A DNA stretch of 64,000 nt from a virus, in the IMG/VR virus record IMGVR_UViG_3300028549_001513; one strand, 5' to 3'. Shown here in pieces: positions 8,227-22,291 of the stretch. Positions within the stretch are counted from its first letter, which is position 1. The number at the start of each line of letters is the position of its first letter. The notes under the pieces were generated by a model. The model was given only the letters and a program-made list of their open reading frames with translations, did not search any database and had not been told where the DNA came from. The position numbers and the translations under genes were made by a program.

Positions 8227-8374
8227 AACTTTAAATAGTTTATTAGTCAATAATAAAAACAAAATATGAATGATTGTAAAAATTGCGCAATAAATAATTC
8301 AAGCATGGCTTTTAGCACTTGTCATTATTGTGATAACAATAGTTGCTTTGTACGGAAAACTAATCAATAGAAAA

Positions 8375-8797
8375 ATGAGCAAAAAAGGCACATTGGCTTG
8401 GAAAAAAGACAAATATTCGCAAGCTTGTAGAATCCTAGACTACATTAACAAACAAGGAAATTTCTGCAATATCCAAAAGAAAAATGGATGTGTAACATGC
8501 GCCAATAGCGCAATGAAAACCAACAGCCTGTGCTGTGGCGGATGCGAAAATCTAACAAAAAATGGATGTAAAGCACAATCGCTATCATGCAAAATTAACT
8601 TTTGTTATTTTGGGACTGGGCCAGAGTGGAATGGATTAGTAAAAACAAATCATCACAAAATTTGGAGTGAAAAAAGAGCGAAATTTATTACTATTCTGTA
8701 TGAATTTCTTTCTATTAATAAAATTCCAATAATCGAAGATAGATGTGGAAAAAAACAAACATTTGTTTATCATAAACAAGAACTAGAAAATGAATAA
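8375..8797 (+). CDS. cysteine-rich protein
   Basis: Likely start MSKKG at 8375. Cys cluster CVTCANSAMKTNSLCCGGCENLTKNGCKAQSLSCKINFC. Confidence 0.6.
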   Translation: MSKKGTLAWKKDKYSQACRILDYINKQGNFCNIQKKNGCVTCANSAMKTNSLCCGGCENLTKNGCKAQSLSCKINFCYFGTGPEWNGLVKTNHHKIWSEKRAKFITILYEFLSINKIPIIEDRCGKKQTFVYHKQELENE

Positions 8798-12501: not shown

Positions 12502-12576
12502 CTTCCGGTAGCTCAATTGAATAGTAGCGACGCCCTTCTAAGGCATAGGTTCTTTGTTTGAATCCAAGTCGGAAGA
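12502..12576 (+). tRNA. tRNA-Arg(UCU), diverged copy carried next to the HNH gene
   Basis: Acceptor CTTCCGG/TCGGAAG. Anticodon loop CTTCTAA. One mismatch in each of the D stem (C.T), anticodon stem (C.A) and T stem (T.C). T loop TTTGAAT. Confidence 0.55.
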
Positions 12577-12583
12577 CAAAGAT

Positions 12584-12629
12584 CGCCCTTCTAAGGCGTG
12601 GGTCAAAGGTTTGAGTCCTTTAGAAATCA
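12584..12629 (+). pseudogene. 3' piece (positions 28-73) of the split tRNA-Arg(UCU)
   Basis: CGCC-CTTCTAA-GGCGT-GGGTC-AAAGG-TTTGAGT-CCTTT-AGAAATC-A. Confidence 0.7.
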
Positions 12630-13324: not shown

Positions 13325-13927
13325 ATGAATATAAAAGAACTAGTAGAGCAGGCTAAATCCGGATCTGAAAAAGCCTTTACTGCATTATATAATCAATATT
13401 ACAGAACAGTATACTTGAATGTATTTAATATAGTAAGGAACAAGGATGTAGCAGACGACTTAACGTCAGAGACTTTTCTCAAGGCGTTTAAGAATATCAG
13501 TAAGTTTACCAAAGATATTTCTTTTGAAATGTGGTTAAAAACAATAGCAAATAATCATTCGATTGACTTTATTCGTAGCGGGAAAAAAGATCAAGACACT
13601 ATTTATATAGACAATGATGAATTGACGGAGTTTATACACACAGACTATTCAAATCCTGAAAAGGAAATGATCAAAAAAGAAGAATCATTTGATTTCGAGC
13701 AAGCTTTAGCGGAGCTAAGCCCAAGATCAAAAGAAGTATTGACTTATAGGTTTCGTGATGAATTATCTTATCAAGAGATCGCAGACAAATTGGGGCTTAG
13801 TATCGGCACAATTAAACATTACATTCACAGATACAAAAAGAAAATAATCCAAAACATTAATCCAAAAAAAGTAACAAAACATGAAAACAAATCAATTGTT
13901 TTTGGCAGGAGTAAGATTCCTAGCTAA
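13325..13927 (+). CDS. sigma-70 family (ECF-like) RNA polymerase sigma factor
   Basis: Region 2-like DVADDLTSETFLKAFKNI..WLKTIANNHSIDFIR. Region 4 helix-turn-helix LSYQEIADKLGLSIGTIKHYIHRYKKKI. Confidence 0.9.
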   Translation: MNIKELVEQAKSGSEKAFTALYNQYYRTVYLNVFNIVRNKDVADDLTSETFLKAFKNISKFTKDISFEMWLKTIANNHSIDFIRSGKKDQDTIYIDNDELTEFIHTDYSNPEKEMIKKEESFDFEQALAELSPRSKEVLTYRFRDELSYQEIADKLGLSIGTIKHYIHRYKKKIIQNINPKKVTKHENKSIVFGRSKIPS

Positions 13928-15729: not shown

Positions 15730-16095
15730 ATGACACCACAAATTCAAAAAGTCCGCATGTTAAGTGCGAGATTAAGAAGGCTCAAGCGAGCCAAGCTAGA
15801 AGTCGCGGAAGTAAGATATACTCTGATCTTAGGAGATGAATTCCTTTGTAAGCCGCTAGATGAATACCTAGCCCGAATCGACGGGAAAATCGATATGTAC
15901 AAAAAAGAAATAAAAGGTGTTGTATATACGATTCCAAACTATGACAAAACGAAGCACATTGTGATTGAGTATTTGTCCGAAGAGGATACTAAACTAGAAA
16001 TGATTGATATCTCTTTGGCGGGAGATAAAACTGCATTTCTAAACCTGGAAACAGGAGAGATAACCATTAACGAAAGCTATCCAAAACAGGGCTAG
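15730..16095 (+). CDS. hypothetical protein (121 aa)
   Basis: ORF track. 4-nt spacing to the upstream gene. Confidence 0.65.
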   Translation: MTPQIQKVRMLSARLRRLKRAKLEVAEVRYTLILGDEFLCKPLDEYLARIDGKIDMYKKEIKGVVYTIPNYDKTKHIVIEYLSEEDTKLEMIDISLAGDKTAFLNLETGEITINESYPKQG

Positions 16096-17810
16096 TTGAA
16101 ACAGAGACCGCGATAAGCGGGAGGACAATGCTTATCAATGTCGGACACATAGAAGACATTAACTATGTAATCAGCATTACTCGGTCGGTAGAGAGCAGGA
16201 GGCTGTTAAAAAATAATCCAAAGTAGCTACCAAGCGCACAAAAATAAGTCGACCTGTTGTGCCTCAGTTAAAAGGCAGATAAAGTTAAAGAGGATCAACC
16301 TCAAGTGTTTAACAATTTAAAATGTAGATTCCCATGCAACTTGCATAGATACGGAATTAATAAATGCGACAGGGGGCTGCCGCTATATAAAATGCCCAAA
16401 CAAAATGACATGGAGGTAGACGTAGCCGAAGCCTCGATCCTTGAATGGAGAATCTCGTGAATCGGCAAATGCATGGAGAATAGCATGCCAAAATCCCCAC
16501 GGTTTAAGCTTCTAGTGAATCAGAAGTAGGATTGGTGCCTGGGCTCTGGAACCCGTTAAACGCAAACAATCAAGGCGAAAGCCGAGTTAGACTTCTTAAA
16601 AGCAGCCACAGTGGTAATGGAAAAAAATACCACAAACAAAATAGATATGAAGGACACTGAGGAAGACCCGAATTCATATACTCGCCTGAATCAAAACAGG
16701 ACAAAAACTCTGAAGTGCCATTAATAATGTAAGTCTAAGGAGTTATCGCTGCAAAAGTATACCTATGAAAGGGTATAGCTAGCACAATAGGCGATATAAT
16801 TGCAGACAACAATGCAATAAATTGAATAGCCATTCAAGTGAGTTCTATACTCAGTCTCCTGTAGGGGTAATGGAATTCGACCTGTCGAGTTTTACTAAAT
16901 TTTATGACAGACGAAAAAGATGGAAAATTAGACCCACGCGTCACAGTGGTTAAAATGTATTGCGAAAACTAATTTGCTTAGTAAGATATGCGTCCAGCGT
17001 TATTAGGAATATATCAAAAAGAAGTCGAACGCCGCTAGTTCGCATCGCATAAAAGTAAGTTCTCTCAGTTGAGATGCGCTGAAAAGACGAAAACGTCAAT
17101 GCAAAAGTCCTTTTCTGACGGTTAGGAACCTAAGCTTAATAGCTGGTCGTCTAACGAATAAGGCCGAAAGCAAGCCAGTCCAAATGGTACACAAAGCAGA
17201 AATGCCCCTTGCTTGGGATATAAAAAATTGTCACTAAATAGGAGAAGGCAATAGTCAGTAGATCAAATTACCTTAAAATATTGCGCGGGATTCGAGTACC
17301 GCCACAGGATCTTTAGAACACCATGAATCATTATCCATAGGAGCTAATACGAGGGTCGCTAAATCAGTTTCTTTGTCTATTCTTTCAACAAAGTAATAGC
17401 TAAAACAATGTCTATGTAGCTAAATGGCCAATCATGAAGCACGCTGTCTTACAAGCAGCCCAACGATAGACGATACGTAATAAGTGGAGCAGCCTACTAT
17501 TACATTAATTTCGCATTCTAAGTCGTTTTAAACAACTCTAGGATAAAAACAAGTCAAACCCTAAGCAATCAGACAAAGTATCGTTAGAGAGCTTTAAAAT
17601 AGCCTTCACGGGCGCAATACCGAACTAATAACTGTAGTGGGCGAAAAACCTATAGCTTAATCGTAAATTAGGTGTTTATTTCGACAAGGAGTGTAACCAT
17701 GTCGACAAGGTTAAATGTAGCTAGTTCCTTATGAACGCCTATCAGATATTATCAAATAATGTCAAAGGTTCAACATTCTAGCAGTTATCAAAACCCAGTA
17801 TTAAATCAAT
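16096..17810 (+). ncRNA. 1.7-kb ORF-free GC-enriched island, candidate large structured RNA (strand not established)
   Basis: No plus-strand ORF of 60 aa or more, and one implausible 61-aa minus ORF. Sample line 16501-16560 is 28/60 G+C. Hairpins CCGC-GATAA-GCGG (16108-16120), TATACC/GGTATA (16758-16777), CGAAC/GTTCG (17026-17042), CGCATC/GATGCG (17041-17078) and GCGG/CCGC (~17284-17303). GNRA-type GAAA loops. Direct repeat TCGACAAGG x2 (~17671-17709). Confidence 0.35.
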
Positions 17811-17826
17811 TAAAAAAGGAGGAAAA

Positions 17827-18297
17827 ATGTCTCAAAAAGTAAACGAAACCGCAGCGCGGCTTTTCTTAGGTGCAAATATTTTCAGCATTGTTGCTGCAGA
17901 TGTAGATGCAACTCACAAATCAAAAAACGCTAACGAGCGTATCGAAGTAAAGGCAAAACTTTACACGTTGAAAACAACCGAGGTTAACGAGGTTAAACGT
18001 CGCAAGGCGCCAGGTGGAGCAGATGTTGCTATCATCAATGGAGGAGCAGATGCAATAACTATGCCACTGACTCAAACTATTATTAATGACGCATCGAAAT
18101 ATAATGCAGAAGAATTGGGCCAATCGCCTCAGTACTTCGGTGATTATGATATCGCTGCTGATTTCTGCAATGCAGGTAATACTGCAGAAATTATTCGCTT
18201 GGAAACAATTATCGAAGATGCTAAAGCGCAAGTGGTAGCATTGAAAGATGTAGTAGCGGCAAACGACCGCAATCGCGAATTTTACAGAGTAGACTAA
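17827..18297 (+). CDS. hypothetical protein (156 aa) with strong SD
   Basis: AAGGAGG(17816-17822) lies 4 nt upstream of the ATG. Contains motif copy 3 at 17908-17921. Confidence 0.75.
   Translation: MSQKVNETAARLFLGANIFSIVAADVDATHKSKNANERIEVKAKLYTLKTTEVNEVKRRKAPGGADVAIINGGADAITMPLTQTIINDASKYNAEELGQSPQYFGDYDIAADFCNAGNTAEIIRLETIIEDAKAQVVALKDVVAANDRNREFYRVD
17908..17921 (+). repeat. conserved 14-mer GCAACTCACAAATC (copy 3 of 3), inside a CDS
   Basis: Identical to 4037-4050. One mismatch to 9719-9732. Confidence 0.6.
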
Positions 18298-20760: not shown

Positions 20761-21327
20761 ATGCTAATAGAACTAGATTTGGACGAGGCTAAACGCCTCA
20801 AAATTACAGTAAATCAGTTCATTCTAATTAAATTAATAATAGAAAAGATAGATATCAAATCGTTAATCAATGTCGTCCGCATTGACGAGTCTGATATTGT
20901 TAATTTAAAAGAACAAGGTATATTAACAAGTGAATCTAGCTTAAATCTAGAAGCAGAATCTAATTTAGTAGTAACAGAAGAATTTATAAAGAAGTTTAAA
21001 GCAAAAGACTTTTTTGATGAATTTTTCGATATCTATCCAACCTCAACAATAAGGCCAGATGGATTAAAAGACTACTTAAGAGGAGATGTCTCTAGATGCA
21101 GGAAATACTATTCAAAAATAGTAGGTAAAAGTAGGGCTAAGCACGAAAGAATGATAGAGAGTCTTAAATTTGAATTAGCAACAAGAAAGCAGTCCAATGG
21201 AATGCAGTATATGAAGAGAATGCCTAAATGGTTATTATCTGAAGAATGGTTGTTATATGAAGAGTTTATAAAAGACAAAACGGTCATTAAACAAGCAGAA
21301 GAAGTTTATGGTACAGGAATCGAATAA
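20761..21327 (+). CDS. hypothetical protein upstream of the helicase (possible loader or initiator; position only)
   Basis: ORF track. Overlaps the helicase gene by 20 nt. Confidence 0.65.
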   Translation: MLIELDLDEAKRLKITVNQFILIKLIIEKIDIKSLINVVRIDESDIVNLKEQGILTSESSLNLEAESNLVVTEEFIKKFKAKDFFDEFFDIYPTSTIRPDGLKDYLRGDVSRCRKYYSKIVGKSRAKHERMIESLKFELATRKQSNGMQYMKRMPKWLLSEEWLLYEEFIKDKTVIKQAEEVYGTGIE

Positions 21328-22291
21328 AAAGACTCTAACCTATAGACACATTTCAACTGCTACAAACGAAATTGTTAAATACATTCATGATAGAAGAACA
21401 CATAAGGTAAAGTCTTTAGCCACTAGATGGCCTAAGTTTAACCGCCTAGCAATGGGCGGAATAGAGCCAAATGTGATTTATACTATAGCCGGAATTTCTG
21501 GCTCTGGTAAATCTTCTTTCGTAAATACACTTGAAACTGATCTGATTGATCTAAATCAAAATGAAGACGTAGTCGTATTATCATTCTCTTTTGAGATGCT
21601 GTCAAGTAGACAGGTAGGCAGAAAACTGTCTTATAAGATGAGAAAGACAACGTCGGAGCTATACAGTGCTACAGGGCATGGAGTAATTAGTGACGAAGAA
21701 TGCCGAGCCGTGGAGGCTCAGGCCAAGACTATAATGGACTATCCAATATATTATGTAGACACGCCAGGAAATGTTACTGAAATAGCAAATACAATAAAAT
21801 TCTTTCAAGATACACTTGCAAAAGGTAAATGGTTAGTAGTAATACTAGACCACACGTTGTTAATACGTGGTACAGCGAGTGAAAGTGAAAGATCAATTAT
21901 TGTTGATTTAGAAAAAGAACTTATAGCCGCCAAAAAAGTTGGTAAGACGTCTATAATACAAATATCACAAATGAATAGAAACATTGAATCGCCAGAAAGG
22001 CTAAACAACAGTTCTATGCATTATCCTCAACGCAGCGACTTGTCTTCAAGTGATGCTGTTTTCCAGGCCTCAGATTATATTATTATAATTCACAGACCTG
22101 AAGTACTTGGACTGCTAACTTATGGCAGCAAGAATCTACCCGTAAAAGATTGCATTTATTTGCACTTCTTAAAAAATCGTGAAGGAGAAGTAAAGATATT
22201 GAAATTTATCAATGACTTGAAATATAACAACCTGAAGGAGCCGGAAATAGAAGAGGAAATACCAACAGAAGAAATTAAAATAAATACATAA
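21308..22291 (+). CDS. DnaB-like replicative helicase (RecA-like C-terminal domain)
   Basis: Walker A GISGSGKSS. Walker B VVILDHTLLI. SQMNR (DnaB SQLNR-like). SDAVFQASDYIIIIHRPE. Confidence 0.75.
   Translation: MVQESNKKTLTYRHISTATNEIVKYIHDRRTHKVKSLATRWPKFNRLAMGGIEPNVIYTIAGISGSGKSSFVNTLETDLIDLNQNEDVVVLSFSFEMLSSRQVGRKLSYKMRKTTSELYSATGHGVISDEECRAVEAQAKTIMDYPIYYVDTPGNVTEIANTIKFFQDTLAKGKWLVVILDHTLLIRGTASESERSIIVDLEKELIAAKKVGKTSIIQISQMNRNIESPERLNNSSMHYPQRSDLSSSDAVFQASDYIIIIHRPEVLGLLTYGSKNLPVKDCIYLHFLKNREGEVKILKFINDLKYNNLKEPEIEEEIPTEEIKINT

Follow-up and report, generated by a model that had tools for sequence, protein, structure and literature searches.

A candidate new family of large structured non-coding RNA in environmental crAss-like phages

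In the present study, a stretch of viral DNA of 64,000 nucleotides (the window) was found to contain, between the genes p121 (15730-16095) and p156 (17827-18297), a long ORF-free island that we interpret, with a probability of roughly 0.78, as a conserved folded non-coding RNA locus, constituting a new family common to a clade of environmental crAss-like phages. It is very probable that the locus specifies a structured RNA under selection, and this selection would act on the RNA in its folded form. There is support for about 25 helices, with at least three pseudoknotted topologies, and covarying hairpins extend from 16108 to 17673. The series opens with the 5' hairpins and domain A, in which there are three pseudoknots; after a variable middle come domain B5', a T-loop-like hairpin, domain B3' and, last, three or four 3' hairpins. 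A previous sequence-only reading had proposed a large structured RNA at this position; conservation and covariation support this core claim, while the single-sequence cues proved not to be distinctive.

First, the island contains no recognizable protein gene. No other gap in the window that lacks ORFs of 80 aa or more is as long as the island (1731 nt; the next one compared, 1420-2718, has 1299 nt), and the description of the island as the longest non-coding stretch was therefore correct. The longest ORF within it has 61 aa, and 31-41 stop codons, of all three kinds, interrupt each of the six frames. Reassignment of any single stop codon opens at most 107 codons, in agreement with the earlier view that no such change rescues a reading frame, and Pfam and PHROG scans of the six frames revealed neither a protein signal nor an RT; a gene under an alternative code was rejected on these grounds. 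The broader proposal of a protein gene that is degraded, recoded or broken by introns, of which the sequence-only reading had itself named the degraded gene as a possible refutation, might appeal to the strand composition, which resembles that of the coding + strand, and to the recoding and introns for which Crassvirales are known, including a group I intron in the helicase gene of a relative. This proposal is effectively refuted, as the gap is ORF-free in every relative, the substitutions follow base-pair covariation rather than codon periodicity, and no intron model matches the window or six relatives. A group I intron was rejected because RF00028 matched neither the island nor its counterpart in six relatives, while the positive control, the helicase gene of relative L016, was found at 73 bits; a group II intron was rejected because there was no Rfam match at E<=10 and no RT in six frames. 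Moreover, both flanking genes are complete, p121 having its own stop codon and p156 a start signal of its own, which leaves no exons that splicing could join.

Second, the composition of the island is largely ordinary. The GC content is 0.395, compared with 0.346 in the window and 0.370 in the immediate flanks. The reported GC enrichment (including 28 G+C of 60 at 16501-16560, an exact count) is thus real and recurs in relatives, where the GC content exceeds the locus mean by 1.5 to 4.6 points (mostly 2 to 4), but it is modest. Purine richness and GAAA loops had also been taken as cues, and neither stands out: the purine fraction is 0.570 versus 0.585 on the coding + strand generally, and GAAA occurs 12 times against 17 expected. 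Local folding energy has a mean z of -0.27 on the + strand and -0.31 on the - strand, and is stronger in the coding flanks. Because all of these measures are unremarkable, short perfect helices in a single sequence are at the level of chance, and only comparison with relatives shows significance. The helices quoted previously and the direct repeat TCGACAAGG are all present at the positions given for them. Among the five example helices, CCGC/GCGG (16108-16120, p=0.0016) and AGCAAG/CTTGCT (with compensatory variants) are conserved, CGAAC/GTTCG is borderline (99.3rd percentile), and TATACC/GGTATA and CGCATC/GATGCG are not conserved in relatives. No iterons or tandem repeats were found in the island, where repeats are only short two-copy chance ones, and an 18-nt inverted repeat (16580-97/17019-36) is no outlier in the conservation scan of stems. 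As had been noticed, there is no similarity to the second island of the window (1420-2718), including by the Infernal models.

Third, the locus is conserved among relatives. A syntenic ORF-free gap of 1.5-2.3 kb, between the same two poorly conserved genes, occurs in about 14-16 distinct relatives (environmental Crassvirales), and the order and presence of the RNA units are constant across all of them. The source environment is represented by the sample behind SRR21758068 and by JGI samples of peat or wetland type, in which the relatives occur. The earlier reading would have been abandoned had no homologues with covariation existed; they were found in about 16 related phages. Nucleotide conservation reaches 1.31 relatives matched per base in the island, compared with 0.00-0.63 in six neighbouring genes. 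The neighbouring protein genes have diverged to 35-50% amino-acid identity, while base pairs are kept by compensatory mutation and the short single-stranded segments between helices are nearly unchanged. Infernal models with window-only seeds gave full-length matches in 15, 15 and 10 copies, all on the + strand. A blastn search of 50,697 phage records with the island gave no match, and a metagenome pattern scan returned 8 loci only; the 34 matches of a GTDB genome scan were all rejected as chance by model screening. An analogous unannotated 2-kb gap is present in gut-clade crAss-like relatives (Suoliviridae, cr4_1 and relatives; at about 60882-63028 in cr4_1, NC_055893), to which homology of the island RNA was not detected.

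The fold itself is argued for by covariation. In the three main covariation tables, whose alignments were fitted to our own structure from single-sequence seeds, 92-96% of cells in the three sub-domains (Infernal) are paired, versus 75-76% when shuffled and 24-50% with partners slid, and compensatory changes occur in 56 of 78 modelled pairs; the set comprises 10-15 sequences, so few and phylogenetically related that shuffle counts are not probabilities. For domain A (alignment A6), the values are 95.4% paired versus 75.3% shuffled and 30-48% slid, and 24 of the 30 pairs have changed on both sides. The pseudoknot helices P2 and P6, which were left unmodelled, are nevertheless 80.9% paired versus 68.7% shuffled (0/500) and 33-42% slid. 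A register-robust cis/trans test gave p<=0.002 for PK1, P2, P3, P6, P7, P8, H5a, H5b and four 3' hairpins, and the top outliers in an unbiased scan of 14087 stems over the whole island are the supported helices. Invariant G·U pairs (e.g. GU:15, UG:12) would be C·A on the opposite strand, and the RNA is therefore placed on the + strand. RNAalifold on plain MAFFT alignments recovered almost no structure, because variable helices are misaligned there. The parts from the 5' end to the middle are as follows.

16096-17826, + strand: candidate RNA locus, the entire ORF-free interval between p121 and p156
16108-16120, + strand: hairpin H5a, CCGC-GATAA-GCGG, 12 nt past the p121 stop; position conserved; cis/trans p=0.0016; CCGT/ACGG in relative L011
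16137-16160, + strand: hairpin H5b, AATGTC/GACATT; z=4.9 in the stem scan; p=0.0008
16366-16397, + strand: hairpin P1 (16366-70/16379-83), loop AGGGGGCT
16374-77 with 16394-97, + strand: pseudoknot PK1, formed by the P1 loop; p=2e-4; z=3.9
16413-16466, + strand: P2 (16413-16/16432-35) interleaved with P3 (16425-29/16462-66), a pseudoknot
16438-40/16447-49, + strand: hairpin P4, enclosed by P2/P3, as is a conserved ATCCTTRRATGGAGA motif
16471-16488, + strand: hairpin P5, GCATG/CATGC; length variable in relatives
16498-16527, + strand: P6 (16498-500/16515-17) interleaved with P7 (16508-12/16523-27), around conserved GGTTTAAGCTTC
16530-16571, + strand: helix P8 (16530-34/16567-71); 5/5 pairs compensatory
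16540-43/16552-55, + strand: hairpin P9 inside P8, conserved CTYTGGAA loop; 4/4 compensatory
16574-16583, + strand: hairpin P10, GGC-GAAA-GCC, GNRA tetraloop
16600-17100, + strand: variable middle region M; sequence conserved in closest relatives only; length varies
16931-16958, + strand: conserved hairpin within region M; z=5.2 for 16938-41/16955-58

Several of these helices have been rewritten in relatives with pairing retained. H5b also appears as CTCGTT/AACGAG, CTCGCT/AGCGAG and ATTCGA/TCGAAT, PK1 as GGGC/GCCC, GGAC/GTCC and GAGC/GCTC, and P6, to which nothing was fitted, as CAC/GTG, CGC/GCG and CTC/GAG. P3 shows compensatory change in all five of its pairs, where 3-4 pair types occur, and 98.6% of its cells are paired; P7 is likewise 98.6% paired, with three compensatory pairs, and P2, outside the model, is 88.5% paired and covaries. 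In P5, four of five pairs are compensatory and only 78% of cells are paired, in a part where the alignment is uncertain. Positions 16503-08 are complementary to the P4 loop (16440-45), with variation only between A-U and G·U. The P10 loop is swapped for an insertion of ~20 nt in three relatives (L007, L008 and L085). Beyond the middle region, the following parts were recognized.

17109-17248, + strand: domain B5', multi-helix junction with closing helix 17109-16/17241-48
17130-35/17142-46, 17147-50/17154-57, 17164-65/17215-16 and 17175-77/17185-87, + strand: inner helices of B5'
17168-74/17208-14, + strand: helix Bd of B5', AGCAAG/CTTGCT; compensatory variants
17196-98/17203-05, + strand: helix of B5' with a GAAA loop, expanded in relatives
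17285-17302, + strand: hairpin GCGG/CCGC with T-loop-like loop GATTCGAGTA; loop nTTCRAGnn in relatives
17308-17357, + strand: domain B3', long irregular stem; outer helix 17308-14/17351-57, inner helix 17321-25/17336-41
17374-17399, + strand: AT-rich hairpin, conserved CAAC loop; p=2e-4
17477-17503, + strand: long hairpin, conserved GGAGnAGCC apex; z=6.8; p=2e-4
17638-52, + strand: hairpin TGGG-CGAAAAA-CCTA, adjoining the next hairpin; p=2e-4
17655-61/17667-73, + strand: hairpin with invariant YGTAA pentaloop; p=2e-4; z=7.3, top of the 14087 stems
17803-17829, + strand: p156 gene-start signal (TAAATCAAT, A-run, GGAGG, ATG), conserved in relatives and outside the RNA proper

Domain B5' (model R3, alignment A10) is 92.4% paired versus 76.3% shuffled (0/500); 20 of its 32 pairs are compensatory, including 7 of the 8 in the closing helix, and its joiners TACACAAAG and GTCACTAAATAG are conserved. 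The T-loop-like hairpin is 100% paired, with 4/4 pairs compensatory and up to four pair types. Domain B3' (model R2, alignment A9) is 96.2% paired versus 76.0% shuffled (0/500), with 12 of 16 pairs compensatory, a conserved internal loop AGAACA//AGCTAATAC and a terminal loop with a conserved CATT.

These domains might belong to one RNA or to several in tandem, and both arrangements lie within the candidate class. Helices linking domains were at noise level only, and since no supported helix joins the domains, the island may hold several RNAs. It is conceivable, and deserves to be kept in mind, that it is a tandem set of independent structured RNAs with separate roles, for example 5'/A (~0.5 kb), B (~0.3 kb) and 3' hairpin units: every domain is closed locally, as B5' is by 17109-16/17241-48, neither the length nor the sequence of the middle region is constant, and three relatives have a weak second domain-A-like match ~550 nt downstream. 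In L007 and L008, the CAAC-loop hairpin is followed by a terminator-like T-run, but this run is missing from the window and most relatives. Against separate units also stand their fixed order and presence in all relatives and the lack of recognizable internal promoters, and long-range pairs are hard to detect with 9-15 sequences.

In every relative, the island directly precedes p156 on the same strand, a position that would also suit a very long structured 5' leader, controlling in cis how p156 and the replication operon behind it are translated, or their stability. The 3' hairpins lie 150-350 nt from the start codon, and the sequence-only reading was right that the island ends at a rare strong SD site: among the 38 long ORFs of the window, only p156 starts within 20 nt of a GGAG or GAGG, and the AATCAAT element is also found upstream of other gene starts. 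Nevertheless, we consider a leader unlikely. No leader known from bacteria or phages comes near a length of 1.5-2.3 kb, the start codon is 0.5-1.4 kb away from A and B, the cores with the strongest conservation, no structure occluding the p156 SD was found, and GGAGG is absent in four relatives that retain the RNA (L013, L008, L016 and L028).

The island heads a replication module encoding an ScpB-like protein, DnaB, an AAA_24 ATPase and a Toprim primase, as might be expected of a replication origin whose transcript serves as a structured primer or R-loop RNA, like ColE1 RNA II or the origin transcripts of phage T4. Such an origin is, however, very improbable here. An iteron-type origin was rejected, as the GC-enriched region has no iterons, repeats or AT-rich unwinding element; the cumulative GC skew of the window has no turning point at the island and reaches its extremum at ~32 kb, where gene orientation flips; and the pseudoknots, T-loop-like and GNRA motifs exceed the needs of a primer RNA. 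With regard to transcription of the proposed folded RNA, sigma-70-like promoter matches in the island were at chance level, no + strand terminator was found, and no Bacteroidota -7 motif was found on the + strand near the island. Because no own promoter or terminator is recognizable, the RNA would probably be transcribed by read-through that starts in the early or regulatory genes preceding the island and runs in the direction of the replication module.

The Rfam/Infernal scan suggested by the sequence-only reading was performed, and the island matches none of 4227 Rfam families. At gathering thresholds, only two tRNAs were detected in the whole window; a permissive scan of 15900-18000 (E<=10) gave only STnc410 and SNORD111, both chance matches, and no match (E<=1) fell in the RNA region of six homologous loci. 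The covariance models of GOLLD, ROOL, OLE, HEARO and raiA (Rfam 15) did not match the island, nor did tRNA, tmRNA, rRNA or RNase P by covariance models and ARAGORN, consistent with the absence of tRNA, rRNA, RNase P and group II signatures remarked on before. Pseudoknots, GNRA tetraloops and T-loop-type tertiary motifs are features that the island shares with other large RNAs, namely group I and group II introns and RNase P RNA. Group I introns are frequently found in phages, relatives of this one among them. The ORF-free 1.7 kb of the island is atypical in size for these RNAs, and the island does not match their covariance models. The features observed, with no ORF in any copy, many covarying helices and pseudoknots, place the locus in the informal category of large ornate non-coding RNA. 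In the literature on crAss-like phages that was examined, no comparable RNA was found. We regard the locus as a new family rather than a member or variant of a known one, because all tests of family membership failed and the mode of action of the nearest analogues is unknown.

Among these analogues, the island is loosely comparable to GOLLD and ROOL. GOLLD is roughly 0.8 kb. Both GOLLD and the island are large, multi-domain, pseudoknotted phage-associated non-coding RNAs in which a variable region occurs alongside unpaired segments of high conservation. The island, in contrast, is about twice as long (1.5-2.3 kb), lacks an Rfam match and adjoining tRNA genes, and belongs to Crassvirales, whereas GOLLD occurs in Lactobacillales phages and lake metagenomes. 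GOLLD is reported to form homo-oligomeric RNA-only complexes (PMC12286853). ROOL (Rumen-Originating, Ornate, Large) shares the loose class of large ornate phage or prophage RNAs, but the island is much longer, belongs to another virus group and has no Rfam match or motifs in common with it. ROOL, too, assembles into homo-oligomers. OLE is likewise a large ornate bacterial non-coding RNA, acting as an RNP with dedicated protein partners; unlike the island, it is cellular (Bacillota), about 600 nt long and has a defined partner gene.

The most likely mode of action of the island RNA would be in trans, as a folded particle or RNP during infection, although a trans role is about evenly balanced against that of a cis leader or an origin RNA. 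The invariant joiners and loops (GNRA, T-loop-like and YGTAA) may serve as contact surfaces. As in OLE, the proteins p121 and p156 could in principle be partners of the RNA. Neither has a recognizable domain, and their AlphaFold2 single-sequence models are too low in confidence for use (pLDDT 48 for p121 and 37 for p156). No close relatives of p156 or p305 were found in IMG/VR, p156 was an orphan in a search of 5.8 billion proteins, and its profile matched neither PDB nor PHROG.

Large folded non-coding RNAs outside the ribosome are rare, and OLE, GOLLD, ROOL and HEARO have each opened new biology or a new RNA architecture. The largest ornate RNAs hitherto known to be associated with phages are about half as long as the present locus; what is new is a family without an Rfam match, while the loose category of large ornate phage RNA is already known. 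Crassvirales are of great ecological and medical interest, and their genomes are mostly unannotated. Herein, we put forward the tentative and rather speculative hypothesis that one transcript of about 1.3-1.6 kb arises from the island, with an activity of its own as a ribozyme or self-assembling particle, and that the 2-kb gaps of Suoliviridae (cr4_1 and relatives) contain diverged members of its family. If so, no bacterial virus would be known to have a larger structured non-ribosomal RNA, and giant structured RNAs would have been overlooked as a general feature of a phage group that is among the most abundant in the human gut.

The island occupies positions 16096-17826, between a 121-aa ORF (p121, 15730-16095) and a 156-aa ORF (p156, 17827-18297), both on the + strand. 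Its 1731 nt make it the window's longest stretch free of ORFs of 80 aa or more, ahead of 1420-2718 (1299 nt), and its longest internal ORF has 61 aa, as expected from the sequence-only reading, which described it as the longest non-coding stretch. All three stop codons occur in all six frames (31-41 stops per frame), and single stop reassignment opens at most 107 codons, so the claim that reassignment rescues no ORF also holds. Pfam and PHROG searches of the six-frame translations gave no match; together with the stop codons, this makes a degraded or recoded gene extremely improbable. The sample line of 28/60 G+C was exact, every helix cited and the TCGACAAGG repeat lay at the stated positions, and the strong SD site at the end of the island is indeed rare, with GGAG/GAGG within 20 nt of the start in one of 38 long ORFs (p156). 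The proposed GC enrichment is evident relative to the window (0.395 vs 0.346) but smaller relative to the immediate flanks (0.370). Two suggested cues to structure did not survive: the purine content (0.570) is not above that of the coding + strand generally (0.585), and GAAA is not enriched in the island. The mean folding-energy z in 150-nt windows was -0.27 on the + strand and -0.31 on the - strand, and the coding flanks were stronger (-1.40). Thus, these internal cues are weak, and the window sequence by itself is insufficient to claim a structured RNA.

No known family was recovered in the Rfam/Infernal check that had been proposed: the scan of the window returned two tRNAs and nothing else, and no meaningful match to the island was observed even at E<=10. 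ARAGORN detected neither tRNA nor tmRNA in the island, RNase P and intron models did not match, in agreement with the earlier reading, and blastn against 50,697 phage records was negative. A group I intron detected in the helicase gene of a relative provided a positive control for the intron models; in L016, RF00028 lies in the DnaB-like helicase gene at 8367-8603 (73 bits, E=1e-16), and this gene is also split in L021 and cr118_1 (MT774379) and uninterrupted in the window. Elsewhere in the window, ARAGORN placed a tRNA-Arg at 12502-12577, overlapping the Rfam tRNA call at 12548-12629, and ARAGORN alone called a 91-nt tRNA-Glu at 3221-3311; the tRNA content of the phage needs curation.

The window belongs to a crAss-like phage that has not been cultured. 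Its minus strand carries giant ORFs (4797, 2063 and 1852 aa within 32462-63097), as crAss-like modules for the virion and RNA polymerase typically do, and the helicase has its nearest named relatives in the Suoliviridae (60-67% identity for the top-listed matches). A 97-kb JGI contig and an independent Logan assembly of SRR21758068 carry the identical sequence. The Logan assembly breaks at 16553-16555, inside the 3' arm of hairpin P9 (contigs end at 16552 and resume at 16556), which population microdiversity or low coverage could explain. Two genes near the island were identified:

13325-13927, phage sigma factor of the sigma-70 family, 2 kb upstream of the RNA
21308-22291, DnaB helicase

The immediate neighbour genes are orphans. 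Relatives were gathered via the helicase (80 IMG/VR loci), with a few further copies from pattern scans, so that the final set comprised the window and 16 non-redundant relatives. Members of the closer clade (helicase identity 72-83%) share the conserved gene order p305-p132-p121-[gap]-p156-p176-p150; their gap spans 1.5-2.3 kb, has stop-free runs mostly below 100 codons, and exceeds the locus mean GC by 1.5-4.6 points, in most cases by 2 to 4. Colinear nucleotide blocks of 69-85% identity were observed in the gap, whereas the flanking proteins share just 35-50% amino acid identity. By blastn, 1.31 relatives were matched per base of the island versus 0.00-0.63 for p305, p132, p121, p156, p176 and p277, and core replication genes were matched in more relatives per base than the island. 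The sigma factor gene is also well conserved in nucleotides (5.1 relatives per base). Profile matches to the island were on the + strand in every case. The elements of the RNA, all on the + strand, are as follows:

16108-20 and 16137-60, two 5' hairpins (H5a, H5b), the first beginning 12 nt past the p121 stop codon
16366-16583, domain A, with helices P1-P10 and pseudoknot PK1, to which the P1 loop contributes; P2/P3 interleaved, enclosing P4; P5 a hairpin; P6/P7 interleaved; P8 enclosing P9, whose loop is CTYTGGAA; P10 a GNRA hairpin
about 16600-17100, variable middle region with one conserved hairpin
17109-17248, B5' junction, closed by an 8-bp helix with compensatory changes at 7 positions
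17285-17302, T-loop-like hairpin
17308-17357, B3', an irregular stem
17374-99, CAAC-loop hairpin, followed by a T-run in some relatives only
17477-503, 17638-52 and 17655-73, 3' hairpins; the YGTAA loop of the last is invariant

In the conserved cores, helix arms differ in nearly every lineage and complementarity is kept, as seen by eye. RNAalifold failed on plain alignments because variable helices are misplaced there, and three alternative approaches were therefore used. First, the best antiparallel complementarity in small windows around both arms was compared between arms from the same genome and from different genomes, by permutation. Support at p<=0.002 was obtained for PK1, P2, P3, P6, P7, P8, H5a, H5b, the CAAC-loop hairpin and the hairpins at 17477-17503, 17638-52 and 17655-73; P1, P4 and P10 are almost invariant and, as expected, were uninformative. 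Second, the same statistic was applied to all 14087 island stems of at least 4 bp, with the bulk of chance stems as the null, and the top outliers were the helices already supported, a stem at 16938-58 and the B5' closing helix. Third, Infernal models seeded with the window sequence alone and our nested structure matched 15, 15 and 10 copies over their full length and nothing in the more distant clade. In the alignments fitted to these models, pairing was retained as follows:

16405-16590, domain A (A6): 95.4% of cells paired; shuffled 75.3% (0/500); slid 30-48%; both-side changes 24/30
17280-17362, B3' (A9): 96.2% of cells paired; shuffled 76.0% (0/500); slid 24-50%; both-side changes 12/16
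17105-17252, B5' (A10): 92.4% of cells paired; shuffled 76.3% (0/500); slid 32-45%; both-side changes 20/32

Because these alignments are model-fitted, the pseudoknot helices P2 and P6 were kept out of the model; in the same alignment they were 80.9% paired versus 68.7% when shuffled (0/500) and 33-42% when slid. The RNA is assigned to the + strand because invariant G·U pairs would become C·A on the other. In addition, the P4 loop is complementary to a conserved TTTAAG (16503-08), with variation limited to A-U/G·U. Taken together, the comparisons show that purifying selection acts both on base pairing and on particular unpaired segments of the + strand RNA; the large folded RNA first proposed from single-sequence cues is thus supported by covariation among relatives instead.

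The island product would then act as a folded RNA, and we favour a trans-acting particle or RNP, with a probability of about one half. A distance of 0.5-1.4 kb separates the best-conserved cores from the next start codon, and four relatives without GGAGG still keep the RNA; both observations favour action in trans and make a giant cis leader of the replication operon unlikely. Pseudoknots, GNRA and T-loop-like modules and expansion segments likewise point to the architecture of an autonomous tertiary fold. Among the peripheral elements, the GAAA hairpin at 17196-205 grows in relatives into a stem of about 5-9 bp, and three lineages carry about 20 nt in place of the P10 tetraloop, so that these elements behave like expansion segments. 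Since no supported helix joining domains A, B5' and B3' was found, the region may be one RNA or several tandem RNAs; several smaller RNAs in tandem, which would agree with the main claim, are a less probable but serious possibility. In one sub-clade, weak second matches to the domain A model occur some 430-670 nt downstream of the main ones (L016 2594-2769, L007 5484-5622, L011 1311-1451; E 6e-4 to 5e-3), hinting that this module was duplicated internally, inside the variable middle region. A role as origin or primer RNA is improbable, more so than a leader, as no iterons, arrays or tandem repeats were found in the island.

No sigma-70-like or Bacteroidota-type promoter was recognisable for the island, nor an intrinsic terminator on its + strand, and no hint of function came from the flanking proteins. 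The region may be transcribed by the phage's own sigma factor or by upstream read-through; the sigma factor at 13325-13927 could direct transcription of a region without host-type promoters. The final 25 nt of the island belong to the p156 gene start, not to the RNA:

17803-17829 including the start, + strand, p156 gene-start signal: TAAATCAAT, an A-run and GGAGG

AATCAAT also lies directly upstream of several + strand starts (e.g. 4107, 5355, 8375 and 19144), which suggests a phage-specific gene-start signal, either promoter or translation signal.

Among known RNAs, the large ornate GOLLD, ROOL and OLE (PMC12286853) come closest, and their Rfam models did not match the island RNA. Full-text literature searches gave no account of a comparable RNA from Crassvirales, and non-coding regions go unmentioned in the paper on the nearest named genomes. 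Because the family models fail and these searches brought up no such Crassvirales RNA, we rate the island RNA as a putative new RNA family. Even the closest analogues have no established function, and the island RNA is therefore not assignable to their way of working.

The second ORF-free stretch of the window (1420-2718, GC 0.403) has no Rfam match, no match to models R1-R3 of the island sub-domains and, as noted earlier, no similarity to the main island; its counterpart is absent from L142, the single relative compared. In the more distant clade, which includes gut Suoliviridae (cr4_1), the replication module is preceded by a gap of 1.3-2.2 kb that is unannotated, free of ORFs and enriched in GC and lies 6-8 kb upstream of the helicase:

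L141 (cr4_1, NC_055893), 1748-3894
L069, 2055-4228
L058, 2156-4150
L079, 2933-4899
L039, 2005-4132

This gap shares no motif with the window RNA, was not matched by model R2 (B3') with filters off, and showed no detectable homology to that RNA. Conservation of the gap among those phages is patchy; in five sequences, 11 of 72 RNAalifold pairs were compensatory, and the stem scan had a heavy tail. This suggests that phages of the group generally carry large structured RNAs at this position; the gap may hold a second family of such RNAs or a diverged one.
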